A DNA stretch of 64,000 nucleotides from an uncultured bacterium (lineage in GTDB: Bacteria; Patescibacteriota; Andersenbacteria; UBA10190; CAIZMI01). Positions 3,287 through 64,000 of this stretch are shown here, piece after piece. Each line of letters opens with the position of its first letter. Within the stretch, counting starts at the first letter, position 1. Location: NCBI GenBank assembly GCA_903934015.1, contig CAIZMI010000034.1:20378-84377 (forward strand). The letters run 5' to 3'. The position numbers and the translations under genes are program-made. Under the pieces are notes generated by a model, which was given only the letters and a program-made list of their open reading frames with translations, was not told the DNA's origin and ran no database searches.

Positions 3287-3299
3287 ATTAGGAACGTTT

Positions 3300-3440
3300 C
3301 GCCCACTTCCGATGTGGTGCCGAGGCACTTCATCGGAAGTGGTGTAGGTTAGTAGCGTCGTAACGACGATACGCGAACCTAAACCACATCGAAGGAGATG
3401 CTTGACCCTGCGAGGGTTGCCGATAAAGCACCACCTTCGA
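3300..3440. other. three consecutive stem-loops (possible terminator or structured RNA) downstream of comF
   Basis: Three inverted repeats: cacttccgatg…catcggaagtg; ggtt…cgtcgtaacgacg…aacc; ccacatcgaagg…ccttcgatgtgg with inner accctgcgagggt. Confidence 0.4.
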
Positions 3441-3580
3441 TGTGGCTACTACGCCCAATATCCTCAACCGTTGAACGGATATAAAAACGCAAGTATTGTA
3501 TAACTAGCTTTAACATGGCAATCTTGAAAAGCGGTTCGTAGTTATCCGATTTCCAATCTCTGATATCCGAATTCCGCGCT

Positions 3581-3711
3581 GGAGAGGTGCCAGAGTGGCC
3601 GAATGGGCGTCCCTGGAAAGGACGTAAGTCCGAAAGGGCTTCGCGAGTTCGCCCACGCACCACGCAGGGTGCGGGGCGCCCAGAACCCAACGTGGTTCTG
3701 TGGCGAATCTC
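3581..3711 (+). pseudogene. tRNA-Ser(GGA) pseudo-copy with a 54-nt insertion in the T-loop and a divergent 3' end
   Basis: The first 70 nt are identical to the intact tRNA-Ser downstream (ggagaggtgccagagtggccgaatgggcgtccctggaaaggacgtaagtccgaaagggcttcgcgagttcg). A 54-nt hairpin-containing insert follows, then aatctc, then sequence that cannot pair with the acceptor 5' strand. Confidence 0.55.
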
Positions 3712-3751
3712 CTACCTATTCTTTAAAACTTTAGAAAAAATAATCAGCTTT

Positions 3752-3837
3752 GGAGAGGTGCCAGAGTGGCCGAATGGGCGTCCCTGGAAAGGACGTAAGT
3801 CCGAAAGGGCTTCGCGAGTTCGAATCTCGCCCTCTCC
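3752..3837 (+). tRNA. tRNA-Ser (anticodon GGA), type II with long variable arm
   Basis: Acceptor ggagagg/cctctcc; anticodon loop ctGGAaa; variable-arm hairpin gtaagtccgaaagggcttc; T-arm gcgag-ttcgaat-ctcgc. Confidence 0.85.
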
Positions 3838-3848
3838 GCAAAAATAAT

Positions 3849-3877
3849 GAAACGCCCTTGCGGCGTTTTGTTATTTT
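3849..3877 (+). terminator. rho-independent terminator after tRNA-Ser
   Basis: Hairpin aaacgcc-cttgc-ggcgttt followed by a T-rich tract tgttatttt. Confidence 0.6.
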
Positions 3878-3885
3878 GCCTGAGC

Positions 3886-3950
3886 AACCAACTGCTTGGC
3901 TCACGGCGAGATTTGAACGGCAAGCGATATCTCGCTCGACTGAATACGAA
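3886..3950 (+). repeat. tRNA-linked module 2, Ser copy: hairpin containing aactgcttg, then an antisense Ser T-arm (gcgagatttgaac), then a gaacggcaagcgat hairpin
   Basis: Same architecture as 6305-6365 downstream of tRNA-Lys (caactgcttg…gaatcgaacggcgagcgat). Confidence 0.5.
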
Positions 3951-4398
3951 GTATCGCAATCCCTAAAATTTGACTGAAATCGAGGGACTAGACACACTAA
4001 AACAAGTTGTTCTATTAGAAAATCCTTGAACAGGAGGCTGTTGATCATGTATAGAACACTCTTTTTGTGGTGGGTTGGGCAAAAACGCAAATTTCAAGCC
4101 TCGTTCGTCCACATTCGGCAACTTCTCTGGTTTCACGTGCGATTGCGCGGTAACGACTTTCATCCGTCACTACAACTTAACGCGAAGCGACGTTCTTCAA
4201 TGACACAGAGCGAACAAGATGGTTACGATTTGGAACTTACTCGGCGTCGCAGTTTGGCTCGCGAACTTGAACTGAAAAATGAAGACCTTGCCCGCACGCG
4301 CTTAGCAAACACTAAGACCTAATCTCTCAGTGTTTTTTTAACTTCCCTTTTTGCTTTATTTATCCTACGCTGGCCATATCAATCCTTAATCAAAATTA

Positions 4399-5157: not shown

Positions 5158-5318
5158 CCGCGACAAACACATCAATACTAACCCACACCACTTCCAATAA
5201 AGGCCATCCGTGGTCACATTGGAAGTGGGTGCGACAATTCAAATTTGCCTTAATTTATAAGCACTTACATATTTTTTACCTGTTCAACTAATTAAAACAT
5301 CTGTGCTATTATTATGGC

Positions 5319-5888
5319 ATGGCAAAACCAACACTGGATTTGCGCCCAAACAGCACAAATGAAACAGAGATTGATGAAGAAATAGCACAATCACCCGCTC
5401 GTTCTGGTGGCAGCTTAAGCCATGGCCAAATTTATTTGGAATGGGAAGCGCCGGAATATGTTATTTATAAAAAAACTACTGTTTGGTATATCGGTTTCGG
5501 AGTTATGTTGGCGTTACTTCTTTCCATTGCGTTTATTATGCAAAGTTTCCTTACCGGAATTATTTTCCTGCTATCTGGTATACTAATCTTTTTTCACAGT
5601 GAACGACCGCCAAAAATCGTTTCATATGATCTGCGTACCACAGGAATAAGAATCGATTCCCGCATTTATCTTTATCGCGAATTATCAGCCTTCAATATTG
5701 TTGAACACGGTTCCAGTATTTACTTGCTATTAAAAAGCAAGCGCCTTTTAATGCCGTTAATCCACATTCCTCTCGCCGATAACCTTAACCATGAAGAAGT
5801 TTTGGACGCCATTTCTAATCACCTGCCCCAAGATCCGGATTTTGTTGAACCGTTAGCGGATGTGTTAGCGCACTGGCTGGGATTTTAA
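5319..5888 (+). CDS. hypothetical membrane protein
   Basis: 189-aa ORF with two predicted TM helices, co-oriented with the band-7 gene; no recognisable motif. Confidence 0.45.
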   Translation: MAKPTLDLRPNSTNETEIDEEIAQSPARSGGSLSHGQIYLEWEAPEYVIYKKTTVWYIGFGVMLALLLSIAFIMQSFLTGIIFLLSGILIFFHSERPPKIVSYDLRTTGIRIDSRIYLYRELSAFNIVEHGSSIYLLLKSKRLLMPLIHIPLADNLNHEEVLDAISNHLPQDPDFVEPLADVLAHWLGF

Positions 5889-6084
5889 AAAAACAAAACA
5901 TACAACTAACAACAAATGAAGGTTGTATTTTTTCATAAAATAAAGCAGAATAGGTTATCGTTTTACGCGCTCGTAGCTTCCCACTCCGCTCAATCTCTGG
6001 ATTGAGCTACGAGGGACAAGTATTGGAATAATAAACCATTGCCTGTCCACCGTAGCTCCGTTCCGCAGAATGGAGCGAAGGTGG

Positions 6085-6157
6085 GCGCTCGTAGCTCAAT
6101 TGGCAGAGCAGGGGCCTCTTAAGCCCAAGGTTGAAGGTTCGATTCCTTCCGAGCGCA
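6085..6157 (+). tRNA. tRNA-Lys (anticodon CTT)
   Basis: Acceptor gcgctcg/cgagcgc; D-arm gctc-aattggc-agagc; anticodon loop ctCTTaa; T-arm gaagg-ttcgatt-ccttc; discriminator A. Confidence 0.85.
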
Positions 6158-6426
6158 CTCTCGTTGATTAGTTTTGCGAAGCAAAACAATCCAAACGTAC
6201 ATAAAATAGCTCCACGTCCTGTGGAGCTATTTTACACAAGAATCAATGAACTCCGAAAGTTTGCGACAAGAGACGCAAAATTTCGGAGCTACCTTTGATT
6301 GCAACACAACTGCTTGTGTTGCGTGAAGGAATCGAACGGCGAGCGATGTTATGCAGAACCGCTCGCCGATGGCCAGATACTTGCGTATCAACGCGAGTTT
6401 CGAGGCCGATTCCTTCCGAGCGCACT
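6158..6426 (+). repeat. tRNA-Lys-linked miniature element ending in a 20-nt direct repeat of the tRNA 3' end
   Basis: cgattccttccgagcgcact occurs at 6140-6159 (inside the tRNA) and again at 6407-6426. In between are the conserved module 1 (two hairpins, acgtacataaaat, ttttacacaagaatca), a ctccgaaa…tttcggag hairpin, the aactgcttg hairpin, and an antisense T-arm gaaggaatcgaac. Confidence 0.6.
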
Positions 6427-6478
6427 AATATTAAACAAGCGCAGACCAAAGTCCGCGCTTATTTTTTATTTTAAATAA

Positions 6479-13639: not shown

Positions 13640-13737
13640 ACAATCCGATTCTTGTGCAAAACAGCATTCGCGTTTAGCGAATGCTGTTTTGTGTACATTT
13701 TTTTGTTTCACTAAGCGAAACAAATCTCGAGTGTCCC
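13640..13737 (-). repeat. conserved tRNA-linked module 1 (Arg-locus copy)
   Basis: The minus strand reads ctcgagatttgtttcgcttagtgaaac…aatgtacacaaaaca, a hairpin (cagcattcg…cgaatgctg), then ttttgcacaagaatcgga. The element at 63660-63760 after tRNA-Glu is near-identical, and the Lys copy at 6158-6245 is related. Confidence 0.6.
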
Positions 13738-13830
13738 CGGCAGGACTTGGCCTCGCCTCAAAAATACTGATGTATTTTTGGGCTGGCCACCGCCTCGTGT
13801 TATCTTCGAATAACACTCCGGCGTTCAAGT
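13712..13830 (-). repeat. palindromic element: inverted copies of the tRNA-Arg 3' end (15 bp, ccccggcaggacttg) flanking a two-hairpin core
   Basis: The core (cgccggagt…hairpin…acgaggcggtggccagccc…hairpin…gaggcgaggcc) also occurs inside the interrupted tRNA-Arg copy at 14035-14137. Both hairpins show compensatory base changes between the two copies. Confidence 0.55.
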
Positions 13831-13889
13831 CCTGCCGGGGGATTTAGAAAAAAGACAATCGCACCGCGATTGCCATTTTTCTAAATCTG

Positions 13890-13963
13890 TGTCCCCGGCA
13901 GGACTTGAACCTGCAACCTTCAGCTCCGCAAGCTGACGCTCTGTCCAGTTGAGCTACAGAGAC
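13890..13963 (-). tRNA. tRNA-Arg (anticodon GCG, inferred)
   Basis: Acceptor gtctctg pairs with cggggac through two G-U pairs. D-arm gctc-aactggac-agagc; anticodon stem tcagc/gctga with loop ttGCGga; T-arm gcagg-ttcaagt-cctgc; discriminator A. Confidence 0.7.
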
Positions 13964-14017
13964 ATAATTAGTCTCTTTTTTGTAATGATATCATTTTAAT
14001 TCTTTTTTGAAATCTAC

Positions 14018-14190
14018 CAAGCCGGCAGGACTTGGCCTCGCCTCTCGGAGTGTTGATACACTCCTCGGGCTGGCCACCGCCTCGTATTGCTTGCGAGCAA
14101 TACTCCGGCGCTGAAAAACCATTAAGGGTTTTTCAGCCTGCAACCTTCAGCTCCGCAAGCTGACGCTCTGTCCAGTTGAGCTACAGAGAC
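14018..14190 (-). pseudogene. interrupted tRNA-Arg copy: nucleotides 1-53 identical to the intact gene, a ~105-nt structured insert in the T-loop, then 12 nt of tRNA identity before diverging
   Basis: Plus strand cctgcaaccttcagctccgcaagctgacgctctgtccagttgagctacagagac matches the intact copy. The insert replaces ttc of the T-loop. The 3' acceptor strand is cggcttg, which cannot pair with the 5' strand. Confidence 0.55.
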
Positions 14191-14270
14191 ATAATTAGTC
14201 TCTTTTGACCTCTTCTTGATTACTTGCTAACAGATAATGACACAAATATCTCAAACCGGCAATATCAATA

Positions 14271-62771: not shown

Positions 62772-63462
62772 TCAGCCTGTAGATATTCCAAAAATATACC
62801 CACGAATCATGCAAAACAATTTTCTATCGTTAACCCTAATATGAATTGTGCCAAACGGAAGCGCGTACGTCGGTCTTTTATGCTTACTTGCACGACTTAC
62901 CGCAACAGAAACCCAAAACATCTCTACCGGCAATCCGATAACGTTAGCCCAATAAACCTTTGCTTTTCCTGCGTCAACGTTTGGGTGGATAATTATGCCT
63001 GGCTTTATGTTTTCATCTTTTACACATAAAATTTCTCGCAAATATCTCATAAACACCTTCACCATACAAAGATCGGAATTTACGAATGTTACTAATTGAT
63101 ACCCCTTTGAAAGTTGTTTATTTACACCCTCCCCCCCAATACAACGACGTTCCGATCATTAATAAGTCTCTTTTTGAAAGCCTTCCGATTTCCTGTTCCG
63201 CATCCTTATAAATAATATTATTCTCACGAATAATTGCTGCGGTTCGTCTTTTATTAAATTCCGTTAAATTTTTCTCTTTTGACTGACTCGTAAGACGCCT
63301 CAACCTATTCCTTGCTTTAATCCCCAACTCAATATCACGAAACCAAAAACTTAATGTCCCTTTTGATAAAATGTCTAATTGGTTCATTATTTCGCCATAA
63401 CTCTTGCCCTGCTTTCTTAAATCAATTGCCATTTTCTTTTTGACGTTAAGTACCTTTGTCAT
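62772..63462 (-). pseudogene. HTH-containing protein split by a frameshift in a G7 run
   Basis: The 114-aa N-terminal ORF (HTH AIDLRKQGKSYGEIMNQLDILSKGT) ends …LYWGGGCK. Deleting one G in gggggggag reads …LYWGEGVNKQLSKGYQLVTFVNSDLCMVKVFMRYL… straight into the 62772-63065 ORF. Confidence 0.5.
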
Positions 63463-63659: not shown

Positions 63660-63964
63660 CTCGAGATTTGTTTCGCTTAGCGAAACTATATAATGTACAC
63701 AAAACAACCAAACATCCCGTTTGGTTGTTTTGCACAAGAATCGAAGAACTCCGAGACTCTAGGCGCTCGATAGCGCCGAGTCTCGGAGCAGCATTGATTA
63801 ATGCCCTTTACGGGTGTTTTTAAATATCTTCTGTCGAATATGGGGAATCGAACGGTATTTTGAAAACATGAACTGCTTCATGTTTTCAAAAACCGAGGCT
63901 TCGCAGGAGGAGTTGCGCATCGAGCCGAAGCGAGGCGCAGCGACGGAAGCGAAGGATTCCCCGT
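63660..63964 (+). repeat. tRNA-Glu-linked miniature element: conserved module 1 plus hairpins, an antisense T-arm, and a 19-nt direct repeat of the tRNA 3' end
   Basis: Contains ctcgagatttgtttcgcttagcgaaac…aatgtacacaaaaca, a hairpin, then ttttgcacaagaatcgaa. A hairpin ctccgagactc…gagtctcggag follows, then the antisense T-arm ggggaatcgaac. cgattccccgtggggctac occurs at 63641-63659 and again at 63946-63964. Confidence 0.6.
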
Positions 63965-64000
63965 GGGGCTACCAAGTAATAAAAACACCGTGCCAAAAGC

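Follow-up and report, generated by a model that had tools for sequence, protein, structure and literature searches.

The tRNA-Ser(GGA) gene of an uncultured Andersenbacteria bacterium (Patescibacteriota; contig CAIZMI010000034.1 of assembly GCA_903934015.1) is preceded by a displaced copy of its own 5′ part and followed by a short antisense copy of its T-arm. We analyzed this Ser locus within the 64,000-nucleotide (nt) stretch of the contig in which it lies (hereafter the window; coordinates refer to it unless a comparison locus, labeled L and a number, is named). We favor the view, at a probability of about 55%, that the Ser locus is a double fossil, in which two kinds of small, selfish, nuclease-driven cassettes that dock at tRNA genes would have inserted at tRNA-Ser(GGA) and then decayed. 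The orthologous site varies in occupancy among relatives, two architectures recur at tRNA genes, nuclease genes are linked to tRNA genes, the junctions are fixed and the folds are stable and conserved. The selfishness of the cassettes and their spread by breakage and copying are the parts of this account that we infer.

ARAGORN called five tRNA genes in the window, one of them the intact tRNA-Ser(GGA) gene (3752–3839, plus strand), which has no encoded CCA and is identical at 88 of 88 aligned positions to the gene of the relative L089. Upstream on the same strand, at 3573–3651, lies a displaced copy consisting of an 8-nt leader and nt 1–71 of the tRNA (canonical positions 1–57), ending with TTCG in the T-loop. 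This copy is one member of a 79-nt direct repeat, D1, identified with a repeat finder (3573–3651 and 3744–3822, 76/79 identical), with a period of 171 bp at the locus. Its tRNA part (3581–3651) matched the intact gene at 71 of 71 positions, both in the repeat search and in a BLAST of the tRNA against the window. A preliminary description of the locus, made by reading the sequence, had reported the duplicated 5′ part, the intact gene and a 54-nt insert after GAGTTCG, and all were recovered, the insert with its exact sequence at 3652–3705. That description had also anticipated that ARAGORN would call one intact gene and one pseudo-copy; the intact gene was called, and in the scan of the window no tRNA was called upstream of 3752–3839. 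The copy breaks off after GAGTTCG, at canonical G57, its 3′ T-stem and acceptor strand are absent, and the sequence following AATCTC is A+T-rich and unrelated. The earlier judgment that the copy is non-functional, and not a gene interrupted by an intron, was upheld by the lack of a 3′ acceptor strand and of any intron in the ARAGORN and Rfam results. A tRNA intron of the bacterial group I kind was specifically ruled out, as the insert is only 54 nt long and has no 3′ exon, no ARAGORN call and no Rfam intron match; the Rfam search of the window locus returned no intron family even at E values up to 5.

The position of the upstream flank indicated which of the two copies stands in the original place. 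A motif read by eye, TTGTAT-17 nt-CAATCT (3496–3524, plus strand), is conserved in the relatives L088 and L089, where TTGTCC or TTGTCT, 17 nt and CAATCT are found 12–20 nt upstream of tRNA-Ser, so that TTGTNN-17 nt-CAATCT is common to the three genomes. It was not called by a consensus promoter scan. In the window it precedes the pseudo-copy and not the intact gene, from which it follows that the pseudo-copy occupies the native position and that the intact gene lies beyond inserted material.

The insert in the displaced copy is a GC-rich plug of two hairpins (3652–3705, plus strand; hairpin 1 at 3651–3677, hairpin 2 at 3678–3704) with a G+C content of 72% versus 41% for the window, in which its 54-nt sequence occurs once. 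Together with its flanks it folds into a three-way junction formed by a closing helix, in which GAGTTC (3645–3650) pairs with GAA-CTC (3705–3711), and the two hairpins, which include the cagaacc/ggttctg hairpin pointed out earlier. The predicted energy was −38.7 kcal/mol (z = −4.06) and none of 200 shuffled sequences was as stable. Directly after the plug, AATCTC (3706–3711, plus strand) corresponds to the 3′ half of the T-loop and T-stem and closes the plug helix with 3645–3650. The window therefore reads GTTCG-54 nt-AATCTC, an insertion between G57 and A58. Beyond AATCTC, an A+T-rich spacer of 40 nt (3712–3751, plus strand) extends to the intact gene. The same place in L088, L116, L117 and L118 is taken by a small GIY-YIG nuclease gene of 82–104 amino acids (aa). 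The spacer is too short for such a gene, and the ORFs (open reading frames) listed at the Ser locus (3587–3847 and 3750–3977) traverse the tRNA copies.

Plugs with the position and build of that in the window recur in complete cassettes. The tRNA-Lys locus of L088, read along the tRNA strand, runs through tRNA nt 1–57, the plug CCCGCCAGCACGGCGGGCGCCCGCTGAGATAGCGGGCG, ATTCC, about 20 nt, an 85-aa GIY-YIG ORF and the intact tRNA, and the general arrangement GGTTCG-plug-CGAWTCC, about 10 nt, ATG...GIY-YIG... and intact tRNA is shared by this locus and by tRNA-Ser(GCT) in L116 and L117. Further cases were collected by tblastn of the L088 GIY-YIG protein against the loci in our collection and by five context look-ups of homologues. 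They comprised tRNA-Gln (L033), tRNA-Pro (L063), tRNA-Glu (L115), tRNA-Ser(GCT) (L116 and L117, the latter with two cassettes in a row), tRNA-Trp (L118) and tRNA-Gly (L123). In eight of the ten loci with a GIY-YIG homologue (these seven and L088), the gene directly abuts an intact tRNA gene on the same strand. Seven of these eight also have a partial tRNA 5′ fragment, interrupted or capped by a GC-rich hairpin module, just upstream of the GIY-YIG gene, and in L123 the GIY-YIG gene and the tRNA are separated by a short 5′ fragment that has no plug.

The L116 and L117 plugs are at the window's position (GGGTTCG-plug-CGAATCC) and nearly identical to the L088 plug, with a compensatory change in hairpin 1 among the three (CCCGCC/GGCGGG versus CTCGCC/GGCGAG). 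In all three, as in the window, the insertion lies between G57 and A58. The minimum free energy (MFE) structures of the window, L116 and L117 plugs are three-way junctions with the hairpins joined by CGCC (z = −4.06, −5.10 and −4.64, respectively), and the L088 plug (z = −2.59) has an MFE structure without the closing helix. At other loci the plug is in the D-loop (L033, L063 and L115) or lies behind a fragment truncated at the anticodon loop (L118). Interrupted 5′ copies that have no gene were found at tRNA-Arg(TCT) in L094 and L113 and at tRNA-Arg(GCG) in the window. The window Ser locus, with 40 nt where the gene would be, fits the GIY-YIG cassette class by its sequence organization.

Two features of these cassettes bear on the origin of the displaced copy. 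Homology to the tRNA ends at position 62–64 in all four T-loop cassettes, and CGAWTCC follows the plug in L088, L116, L117 and L118. The intact tRNA of L116 has a different T-loop (TTTGAAC) and T-stem from CGAWTCC, and L118 has the string after a fragment cut at the anticodon loop, which indicates that the string belongs to the cassette and not to the local tRNA. By the same token AATCTC in the window would travel with the cassette. The preliminary description had the copy resume with AATCTC and then diverge; the hexamer and the divergence are both present, and the hexamer is probably cassette-borne, not a continuation of the interrupted tRNA. The L117 fragment upstream of the gene is about 25% different from the intact tRNA, whose 3′ end does not match the acceptor half of the fragment, so that the two have different origins.

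These features speak against another history, which we regard as unlikely, in which the tRNA-Ser 5′ region was tandemly duplicated, for example by replication slippage, and one copy was hit by an independent GC-rich palindromic element resembling a MITE (miniature inverted-repeat transposable element) or REP (repetitive extragenic palindromic) sequence and was truncated, with no nuclease cassette involved. The 71/71 identity does suggest a recent local event. The plug has inverted ends (CCCAC...GTGG) and a possible 2-bp CG target duplication, which is indistinguishable from the hairpin 2 stem, and the genome holds other hairpin-rich insertions, such as that at 3295–3460 (z = −7.8). The gene-less interrupted copies at the two Arg tRNAs would also suit this history. 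However, the 54 nt are found only once in the window, the same homology end (62–64) and insertion point (G57/A58) are shared by four independent tRNAs and genomes in which the nuclease gene is present, and CGAWTCC follows the plug where the local tRNA cannot be its source (L116 and L118).

Several observations on the upstream cassettes and their surroundings are recorded here. In L116 (1754–1847), the tRNA-Ser(GCT) beside the GIY-YIG cassette has, with its TTTGAAC T-loop, a U for the near-universal C56, which falls exactly at the plug position of the neighboring fragment; this tRNA could be a nuclease-resistant allele. On the minus strand of L098, upstream of tRNA-Gly(CCC), the module interrupting a 5′ fragment contains the hammerhead core string CTGATGAG. 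At 3700–3712 in the window, the plug end and AATCTC (GTGGCGAATCTC) resemble the flank GTGGCAATCTC of tRNA-Ser in L088 and L089 (11/12, one indel). We read this likeness as a coincidence with the T-loop half, and alternatively the cassette end could mimic or reuse the tRNA-Ser flank.

The second element lies downstream of the intact gene. A terminator-like hairpin with a T-run (3850–3877), identified from the sequence and a promoter/terminator scan, follows tRNA-Ser and was the only usable result of that scan at the Ser locus. After it come, on the plus strand, hairpin A with the conserved loop AACTGCTT (3881–3903), an antisense arm ending in GAAC (3905–3918, inverted repeat I10) that is the reverse complement of tRNA-Ser G53–C66 with one mismatch (13/14), and a decayed remainder (3919–3960) that comprises GGCAAGCGAT and a stub of hairpin B before giving way to unrelated sequence. 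Hairpin A, the cognate antisense T-arm and the GGCRAGCGAT of hairpin B all lie within 3881–3936. Positions 3886–3935 are identical at 47 of 49 positions to the core of an element in L088 and then diverge from it, and both ends of the element are missing. The trailer has neither the 5′ module (CTCGAGATTTG...CACAAGAATCGAAGAACTCCGA) nor the terminal direct repeat of the tRNA 3′ end after ...GAGGCC, both of which are present at tRNA-Lys and tRNA-Glu of the window and at tRNA-Ser of L088. It folds no better than shuffled sequences (z = −1.1). With its ends missing and its fold at shuffle level, the trailer is a truncated remnant.

The likeness of this trailer to that of tRNA-Lys, to which the preliminary description had drawn attention, was substantiated. 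Both trailers contain CAACTGCTTG and GAACGGCRAGCGAT, each of which occurs exactly twice in the window, at these two places; fewer than one match to GAACGGCRAGCGAT would be expected in the window even allowing two mismatches. The tRNA-Lys(CTT) trailer (6300–6347) has the same order of hairpin A, arm and GGCAAGCGAT, and its arm matches the Lys T-arm at 13 of 13 positions. A scan of metagenomes with a 22-nt string from the 5′ module returned 22 loci, and in at least 12 of them the distance from a tRNA 3′ end (Gly, Arg, Thr, Glu, Lys, Val or Ser) to the string is about 72 nt. Complete copies show a constant order of intact tRNA, 5′ module, hairpin A, antisense arm ending in GAAC, hairpin B, hairpin C ending in ...GAGGCC, and a repeat of the tRNA 3′ end that starts at C56 or G57. 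They were found at tRNA-Ser in L088, tRNA-Arg in L094 and tRNA-Gly in L099, and in the window at tRNA-Lys (6159–6426), tRNA-Glu (63661–63972) and tRNA-Arg (13888–13731), the last three with 3′-end repeats of 18–20 nt. Arm and repeat pair, and the unit accordingly forms a long stem with two hairpins at its tip (z = −7.3 and −11 for two such units).

The arm follows the identity of the neighboring tRNA. The hairpin A loop motif was found within 450 nt after a tRNA at 15 places, representing ten tRNA species. At 13 of them, an exact reverse complement of 9–14 nt of that tRNA's T-arm lies beside hairpin A, and at nine of the 15 no other tRNA (about 90 tested) matched the arm equally well. About half of the cognate arms have no 3′-end repeat nearby. 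Hairpin B retains a constant 14-nt loop on stems that change in a compensatory manner (GGCGAGCG/CGCTCGCC, GGCAAGCG/CGCTTGCC and GGTTCGCG/CGCGAACC). L094 is the single informative case for distinguishing the two possible partners of the arm, and there the arm fits the intact tRNA and not the differing repeat.

Such regularities raise the question of whether the units are functional RNA genes or signals. The arm might guide some factor to the cognate tRNA or its gene, or the arm-module-repeat RNAs might mimic an acceptor/T minihelix and be processed like tRNAs, with the plugged copy serving as a leader that controls expression of the tRNA or nuclease. The 13 cognate arms among 15 places and ten tRNA species, about half of them with no direct repeat to pair with, the constant loop and compensatory stems of hairpin B, the very stable folds (down to z = −11) and the L094 arm all speak for such a role. 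Against it, the Ser unit of the window is truncated and folds poorly (z = −1.1), L089 has the same tRNA and lacks the unit entirely, so that the unit is dispensable here, there is no Rfam family match, and a terminator-like hairpin stands between the tRNA and the unit. On balance we consider this explanation quite unlikely. We likewise see only a slim chance that the arm is the programmable guide of gene-less elements of 150–300 nt, pairing from between conserved hairpins with the T-arm of a single tRNA gene, either in the element itself or in RNA or single-stranded DNA (ssDNA) derived from it, and directing in trans a structure-specific nuclease such as an Slx1-like mini GIY-YIG protein, or that the arm-module-repeat RNAs are mimics of the tRNA top half with a cellular role. 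If the guide version were true, these elements would constitute a guide-directed, tRNA-targeting mobile system that has no transposase or integrase.

In searches of the window locus and the L088 element, no Rfam family was found for any module; at permissive E values the full L088 element gave only sub-threshold chance matches, as did the window locus. Viral contigs scanned with strings from the 5′ module, hairpin 2 and hairpin A yielded nothing, or unrelated terminator hairpins and coding matches. As to its origin, the arm may be either a guide or a footprint or by-product of repair. Fold-back repair of the P-nucleotide (palindromic nucleotide) type was rejected as its source, as a module of about 70 nt separates arm and repeat and the arm runs 3–4 nt past the junction; these extra 3–4 nt are universal T-loop bases and so are weak evidence for or against a fold-back origin. 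TIGR (tandem interspaced guide RNA) arrays, the homing spacers of CRISPR-associated transposons, retroviral-type primer-binding sites and bridge RNAs were not suitable analogues of the arm either, as the genes associated with them are absent and the arm mostly stops short of the tRNA 3′ end. The L094 and L099 arms carry GA, not TC, opposite G57–A58. On pairing with the tRNA or the repeat, the junction would then contain a tandem G-A mismatch. After some tRNAs in L093, L109, L112 and L114 there are two or three tandem units of a different kind, made of TTTGCACAAGAATCGAAGAACTCCGA, a variable long hairpin and TCGGAGC...CCCAACTGAGCT.

The same genomic site in relatives showed gain and loss of sequence around one tRNA gene. 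Relatives were found as a graded series of homologues of a lineage-specific 189-aa protein encoded at 5319–5888, and in the contigs of all relatives fetched, tRNA-Ser(GGA) directly follows the ComF-like gene. L089 (77% protein identity) has the identical tRNA-Ser and neither upstream copy nor trailer, and so is an empty site. L088 (87% protein identity) has no upstream copy and a complete element of about 280 nt after tRNA-Ser. This element starts with TCGAGATTTGTTTCGCTTTGCGAAAC, holds CAACTGCTTGGCTCAC-GGCGAGATTCGAAC-GGCAAGCGAT and ends in ...GAGGCC, which is joined to a second tRNA 3′ end running from the T-loop onward (GAATCTCGCCCTCTCCGC). The orthologous tRNA-Ser site is therefore polymorphic for presence and absence, being empty in L089, differently occupied in L088 and carrying the upstream copy and the trailer in the window. 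The preliminary description gave no explanation of the structure; the comparison with relatives that it had proposed provided an empty site, a full-length element and, elsewhere, versions bearing the nuclease gene.

It seems to us scarcely credible that the arrangement is an artefact of assembly, produced when a repeat in this metagenome-assembled genome was collapsed or wrongly joined. There are N-gaps inside one or other repeat copy in L001 and L002, as a real repeat with a 171-bp period would cause in short-read assemblers. L005 (2910–3667) and L006 (1–17) switch to unrelated high-G+C sequence, in one case joined inside a tRNA; these two are chimeric assemblies elsewhere, which explains their divergence. 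In contrast, three independent assemblies, represented by the window, L003 and L005, agree at every position of the Ser locus and have no gaps there, and the same architecture is present in unrelated genomes from NCBI, ENA and JGI. Presence or absence at the strain level was examined and dismissed: all seven contigs with the same Band7 protein are identical at the locus, and an apparent length difference of 100 bp consists of scaffold Ns. Band7 is about 80% identical even to proteobacterial copies and synteny was lost in the genome-contig scan based on it, the loci of which were used only as a background set.

The proteins encoded in the upstream cassettes are bare catalytic domains of 82–104 aa with a Pfam GIY-YIG match, and their only solved relatives are two UPF0213 structural-genomics entries. 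In a phylogenomic study, stand-alone prokaryotic GIY-YIG domains were grouped with Slx1, a structure-specific nuclease (PMC1564403). We found more than 1000 small homologues, many of them on contigs of less than 1 kb, as expected for repeats. A second nuclease family has a comparable association with tRNA genes. The window encodes a 335-aa helix-turn-helix (HTH)-LAGLIDADG protein (13588–12581, minus strand) with more than 700 homologues. In all five contexts inspected (the window, L106, L124, L128 and L132), its gene abuts tRNA-Ser(GCT) on the same strand, ending within 20 nt of it or overlapping its start. A frameshifted relative of this gene lies at 62772–63462, divergent from tRNA-Glu.

The T-loops of tRNA genes are classic sublocations of integration, and integration leaves partial tRNA copies. 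Such tRNA fragments from integrated elements have been reviewed (PMC9897764). It could accordingly be argued that the window fragments are attachment-site (att) scars of integrase-type elements, such as phages, integrative and conjugative elements (ICEs) or deleted derivatives, that recombined in the T-loop, with the repeats representing attL and attR and with the hairpins and arm representing recombinase-binding or ssDNA-folded sites like the attP of CTX phage or the attC of integrons. Direct repeats of a tRNA segment do flank inserted DNA (79 nt at the Ser locus and 18–20 nt at Lys, Glu and Arg), and a serine recombinase gene overlaps tRNA-Glu in L115. The downstream class, with its arm, loop of about 70 nt and direct repeat at one end, also resembles the folded attP at the end of an integrated CTX prophage. 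Nevertheless, among the roughly 18 kb annotated around the locus (Pfam list, L001) there is no integrase, transposase or Xer-like gene within about 10 kb, and none of about 20 elements examined contains one. The elements measure only 100–300 bp, duplication of the 5′ part as seen in the upstream class is rare for integrases, and the genes actually associated with them are GIY-YIG and LAGLIDADG nucleases. For these reasons we hold the att-scar explanation to be very unlikely.

We return to the double fossil and to how it might have arisen. The upstream cassette, for which we use the term 5′-docking, would sit in the T-loop of the native gene, so that the native 5′ part (positions 1–57) stays beside the native flank, capped by a plug that the two T-loop halves close. 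Such a cassette would bring CGAATCYC, a small stand-alone GIY-YIG gene (absent here, where there are 40 nt) and a fresh 5′ part that completes a working tRNA. A full 3′-docking cassette would bring a replacement 3′ part from the T-loop on, a non-coding body of about 250 nt, an antisense cognate T-arm and two more hairpins, ahead of the displaced native 3′ end; about 50 nt of its core would survive at the window Ser locus. We propose that the nuclease cuts a tRNA gene that lacks the cassette, within its most conserved stretch, and that repair then copies the allele carrying the cassette, the tRNA halves providing homology arms. The carried tRNA segment would keep the essential gene intact, as the tRNA ends borne on attP do for integrative elements, and the plug would prevent the remaining fragment from functioning as a tRNA or being targeted by the nuclease. 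At the Ser locus the nuclease gene would have been lost, or would never have arrived, leaving the upstream element as an inert structure.

A number of points weigh against this account. By tblastn there is no GIY-YIG gene in the 64-kb window, nor at the Ser locus, so that its earlier presence there is deduced from relatives. The mini GIY-YIG proteins have no recognizable DNA-binding domain of the sort found in classical GIY-YIG homing enzymes, and sequence-specific cleavage of tRNA genes is a proposal. The intact tRNA keeps a full T-arm, and the account does not say how a cassette-bearing genome escapes its own nuclease; nor does it offer a route by which a cassette reaching a new tRNA species acquires the matching duplicated part and antisense arm. 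The only strings common to the window plug and the conserved plugs are the anchors GTTCGCCC, GGGCGCC and GGCGAAT. When a covariance model was made from the other plugs, 3643–3711 aligned to it end to end through these anchors with 11.5 bits and an E value of about 1.1, the third-best match in the window, for a model that amounts to 2.6 effective, very similar sequences. Finally, the 71/71 identity of the copies would also fit a recent local duplication.

Other tRNA loci in the window carry related structures, and that of tRNA-Arg(GCG) (13727–14192) is even more complex than the Ser locus. On the minus strand, an interrupted 5′ copy at 14192–14020 is made of nt 1–54, a 117-nt insert and AAGTCCTGCCGG, and the intact gene follows at 13963–13889. 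Downstream of it is a minimal element with an 18-nt perfect antisense arm and a 19-nt 3′-end repeat, followed by a further element's 5′ module, which runs on into the LAGLIDADG gene. The Lys locus has a 3′-end repeat downstream, joined in the T-loop, and a D-arm fragment upstream. The preliminary description had counted the Ser locus as a second independent instance of a T-loop-interrupted, duplicated tRNA, in parallel with Lys; the Lys locus belongs instead to the mirror class, and the true second interrupted 5′ copy in the window is that of tRNA-Arg(GCG). Overall the description's observations at the Ser locus are confirmed and its interpretation is partly supported. Upstream of tRNA-Lys, at 5967–6084, we noted 12 nt that repeat its 5′ end and, after a gap of 22 nt, a 13-nt antisense copy of its D-arm (nt 4–16), a pair that mirrors the downstream arrangement of arm and repeat. 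The tRNA-Lys gene with its elements is inverted relative to the flanking genes between the window (5889–6478) and L088 (10571–11330), which suggests that inverted tRNA fragments may mediate rearrangements.

The genes flanking the Ser locus encode ClpB, Band7, a ComF-like phosphoribosyltransferase and others, and the contigs that share them assign the window to a population of Patescibacteria (CPR) from freshwater lakes. The stable insertion at 3295–3460 mentioned above is a 166-nt block of three long hairpins that extends the spacer from the ComF-like stop codon to the tRNA-Ser flank; it is absent in L088 and L089, where this spacer is about 45 nt. An inverted partial copy of it lies at 5176–5244, after the Band7 gene, and the two are probably members of another miniature repeat family. 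The intact tRNA-Ser gene called by ARAGORN was not listed by Rfam at the gathering threshold, and in a permissive search a sub-threshold match to transfer-messenger RNA (tmRNA) replaced it within the clan. We did not judge the gene defective, because the identical sequence is present in L089, and the omission looks like a reporting quirk.

If the double-fossil account is correct, the tRNA genes of the tiny, streamlined Patescibacteria genomes would be routinely colonized by very small selfish cassettes, which is unexpected in genomes of this kind. The account would make sense of the tRNA fragments found in them, of contigs that break at tRNA genes and of local inversions such as that of tRNA-Lys between the window and L088, and it would give a role to more than 1000 uncharacterized mini GIY-YIG proteins (UPF0213). 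It also raises the question of whether a 12–18-nt antisense copy of a target is a guide or a repair footprint. For annotation, such loci yield pseudo-tRNAs and spurious ORFs.

In a literature search we found nothing that describes cassettes of tRNA fragment, hairpin and GIY-YIG gene, or cognate antisense arms. The tRNA-docking cassettes appear undescribed in the literature and in Rfam, and the Ser locus is most likely a decayed member of this class. Several known systems share parts of their character. Phage T4 SegB is a free-standing GIY-YIG homing endonuclease whose gene lies among tRNA genes and is thought to spread by a double-strand break in a tRNA region without the gene, followed by copying from the gene-bearing genome (PMC2330249). 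The setting of the GIY-YIG gene is the same, and the 2-nt 3′ overhangs of GIY-YIG enzymes would fit a CG duplication at the plug. However, SegB has two domains, including one for DNA binding, whereas the cassette proteins are bare UPF0213/Slx1-like domains of 82–104 aa, and SegB loci have no partial tRNA duplication, plug or antisense arm, while the window copy has no gene at all.

For integrative elements, Williams (2002) reportedly described a sublocation in the tRNA T-loop. Phages, ICEs and their deleted derivatives of the CIME (cis-mobilizable element) type resemble the cassettes in inserting in the T-loop, in bringing a tRNA segment, in displacing a direct repeat and in persisting as decayed derivatives. 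The cassettes differ from them in having no integrase and a length of 100–300 bp, in regenerating, in the upstream class, the 5′ and not the 3′ part, and in carrying conserved hairpin modules and a cognate antisense arm. Among insertion sequences (IS), the ends of IS200/IS605 elements have DNA guides next to hairpins, and IS110/IS1111 elements use bridge or seek RNAs. These elements may work in a like manner, with a variable target-complementary segment between conserved hairpins near one end; the cassettes, by comparison, have no HUH or DEDD transposase, a contiguous arm of 12–18 nt, and also a copy of the target in cis.

Within the same phylum, tRNA genes of Patescibacteria host self-splicing group I introns in the anticodon loop (PMC13011429). 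The likeness extends to tRNA genes serving as hosts of selfish or structured insertions, but these introns exceed 200 nt, lie at position 35/36 and have both exons, while the window insert is 54 nt long, lies in the T-loop and has no 3′ exon. In fungal mitochondria, the GC-rich PstI palindromes of Neurospora flank tRNA genes, and double-hairpin elements in Allomyces adjoin a mobile endonuclease ORF by which the end of atp6 was duplicated. Both resemble the cassettes in combining GC-rich double hairpins in an A+T-rich genome at tRNA genes with endonuclease ORFs and a duplicated gene end that spares the host gene; they differ in being organellar, with no fixed position in a tRNA loop and no reported antisense arm. 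By analogy, the closest systems in mode of action would be homing genes of the SegB type and the integrative elements that regenerate their tRNA target, and the closest in anatomy would be the double hairpins of fungal mitochondria.

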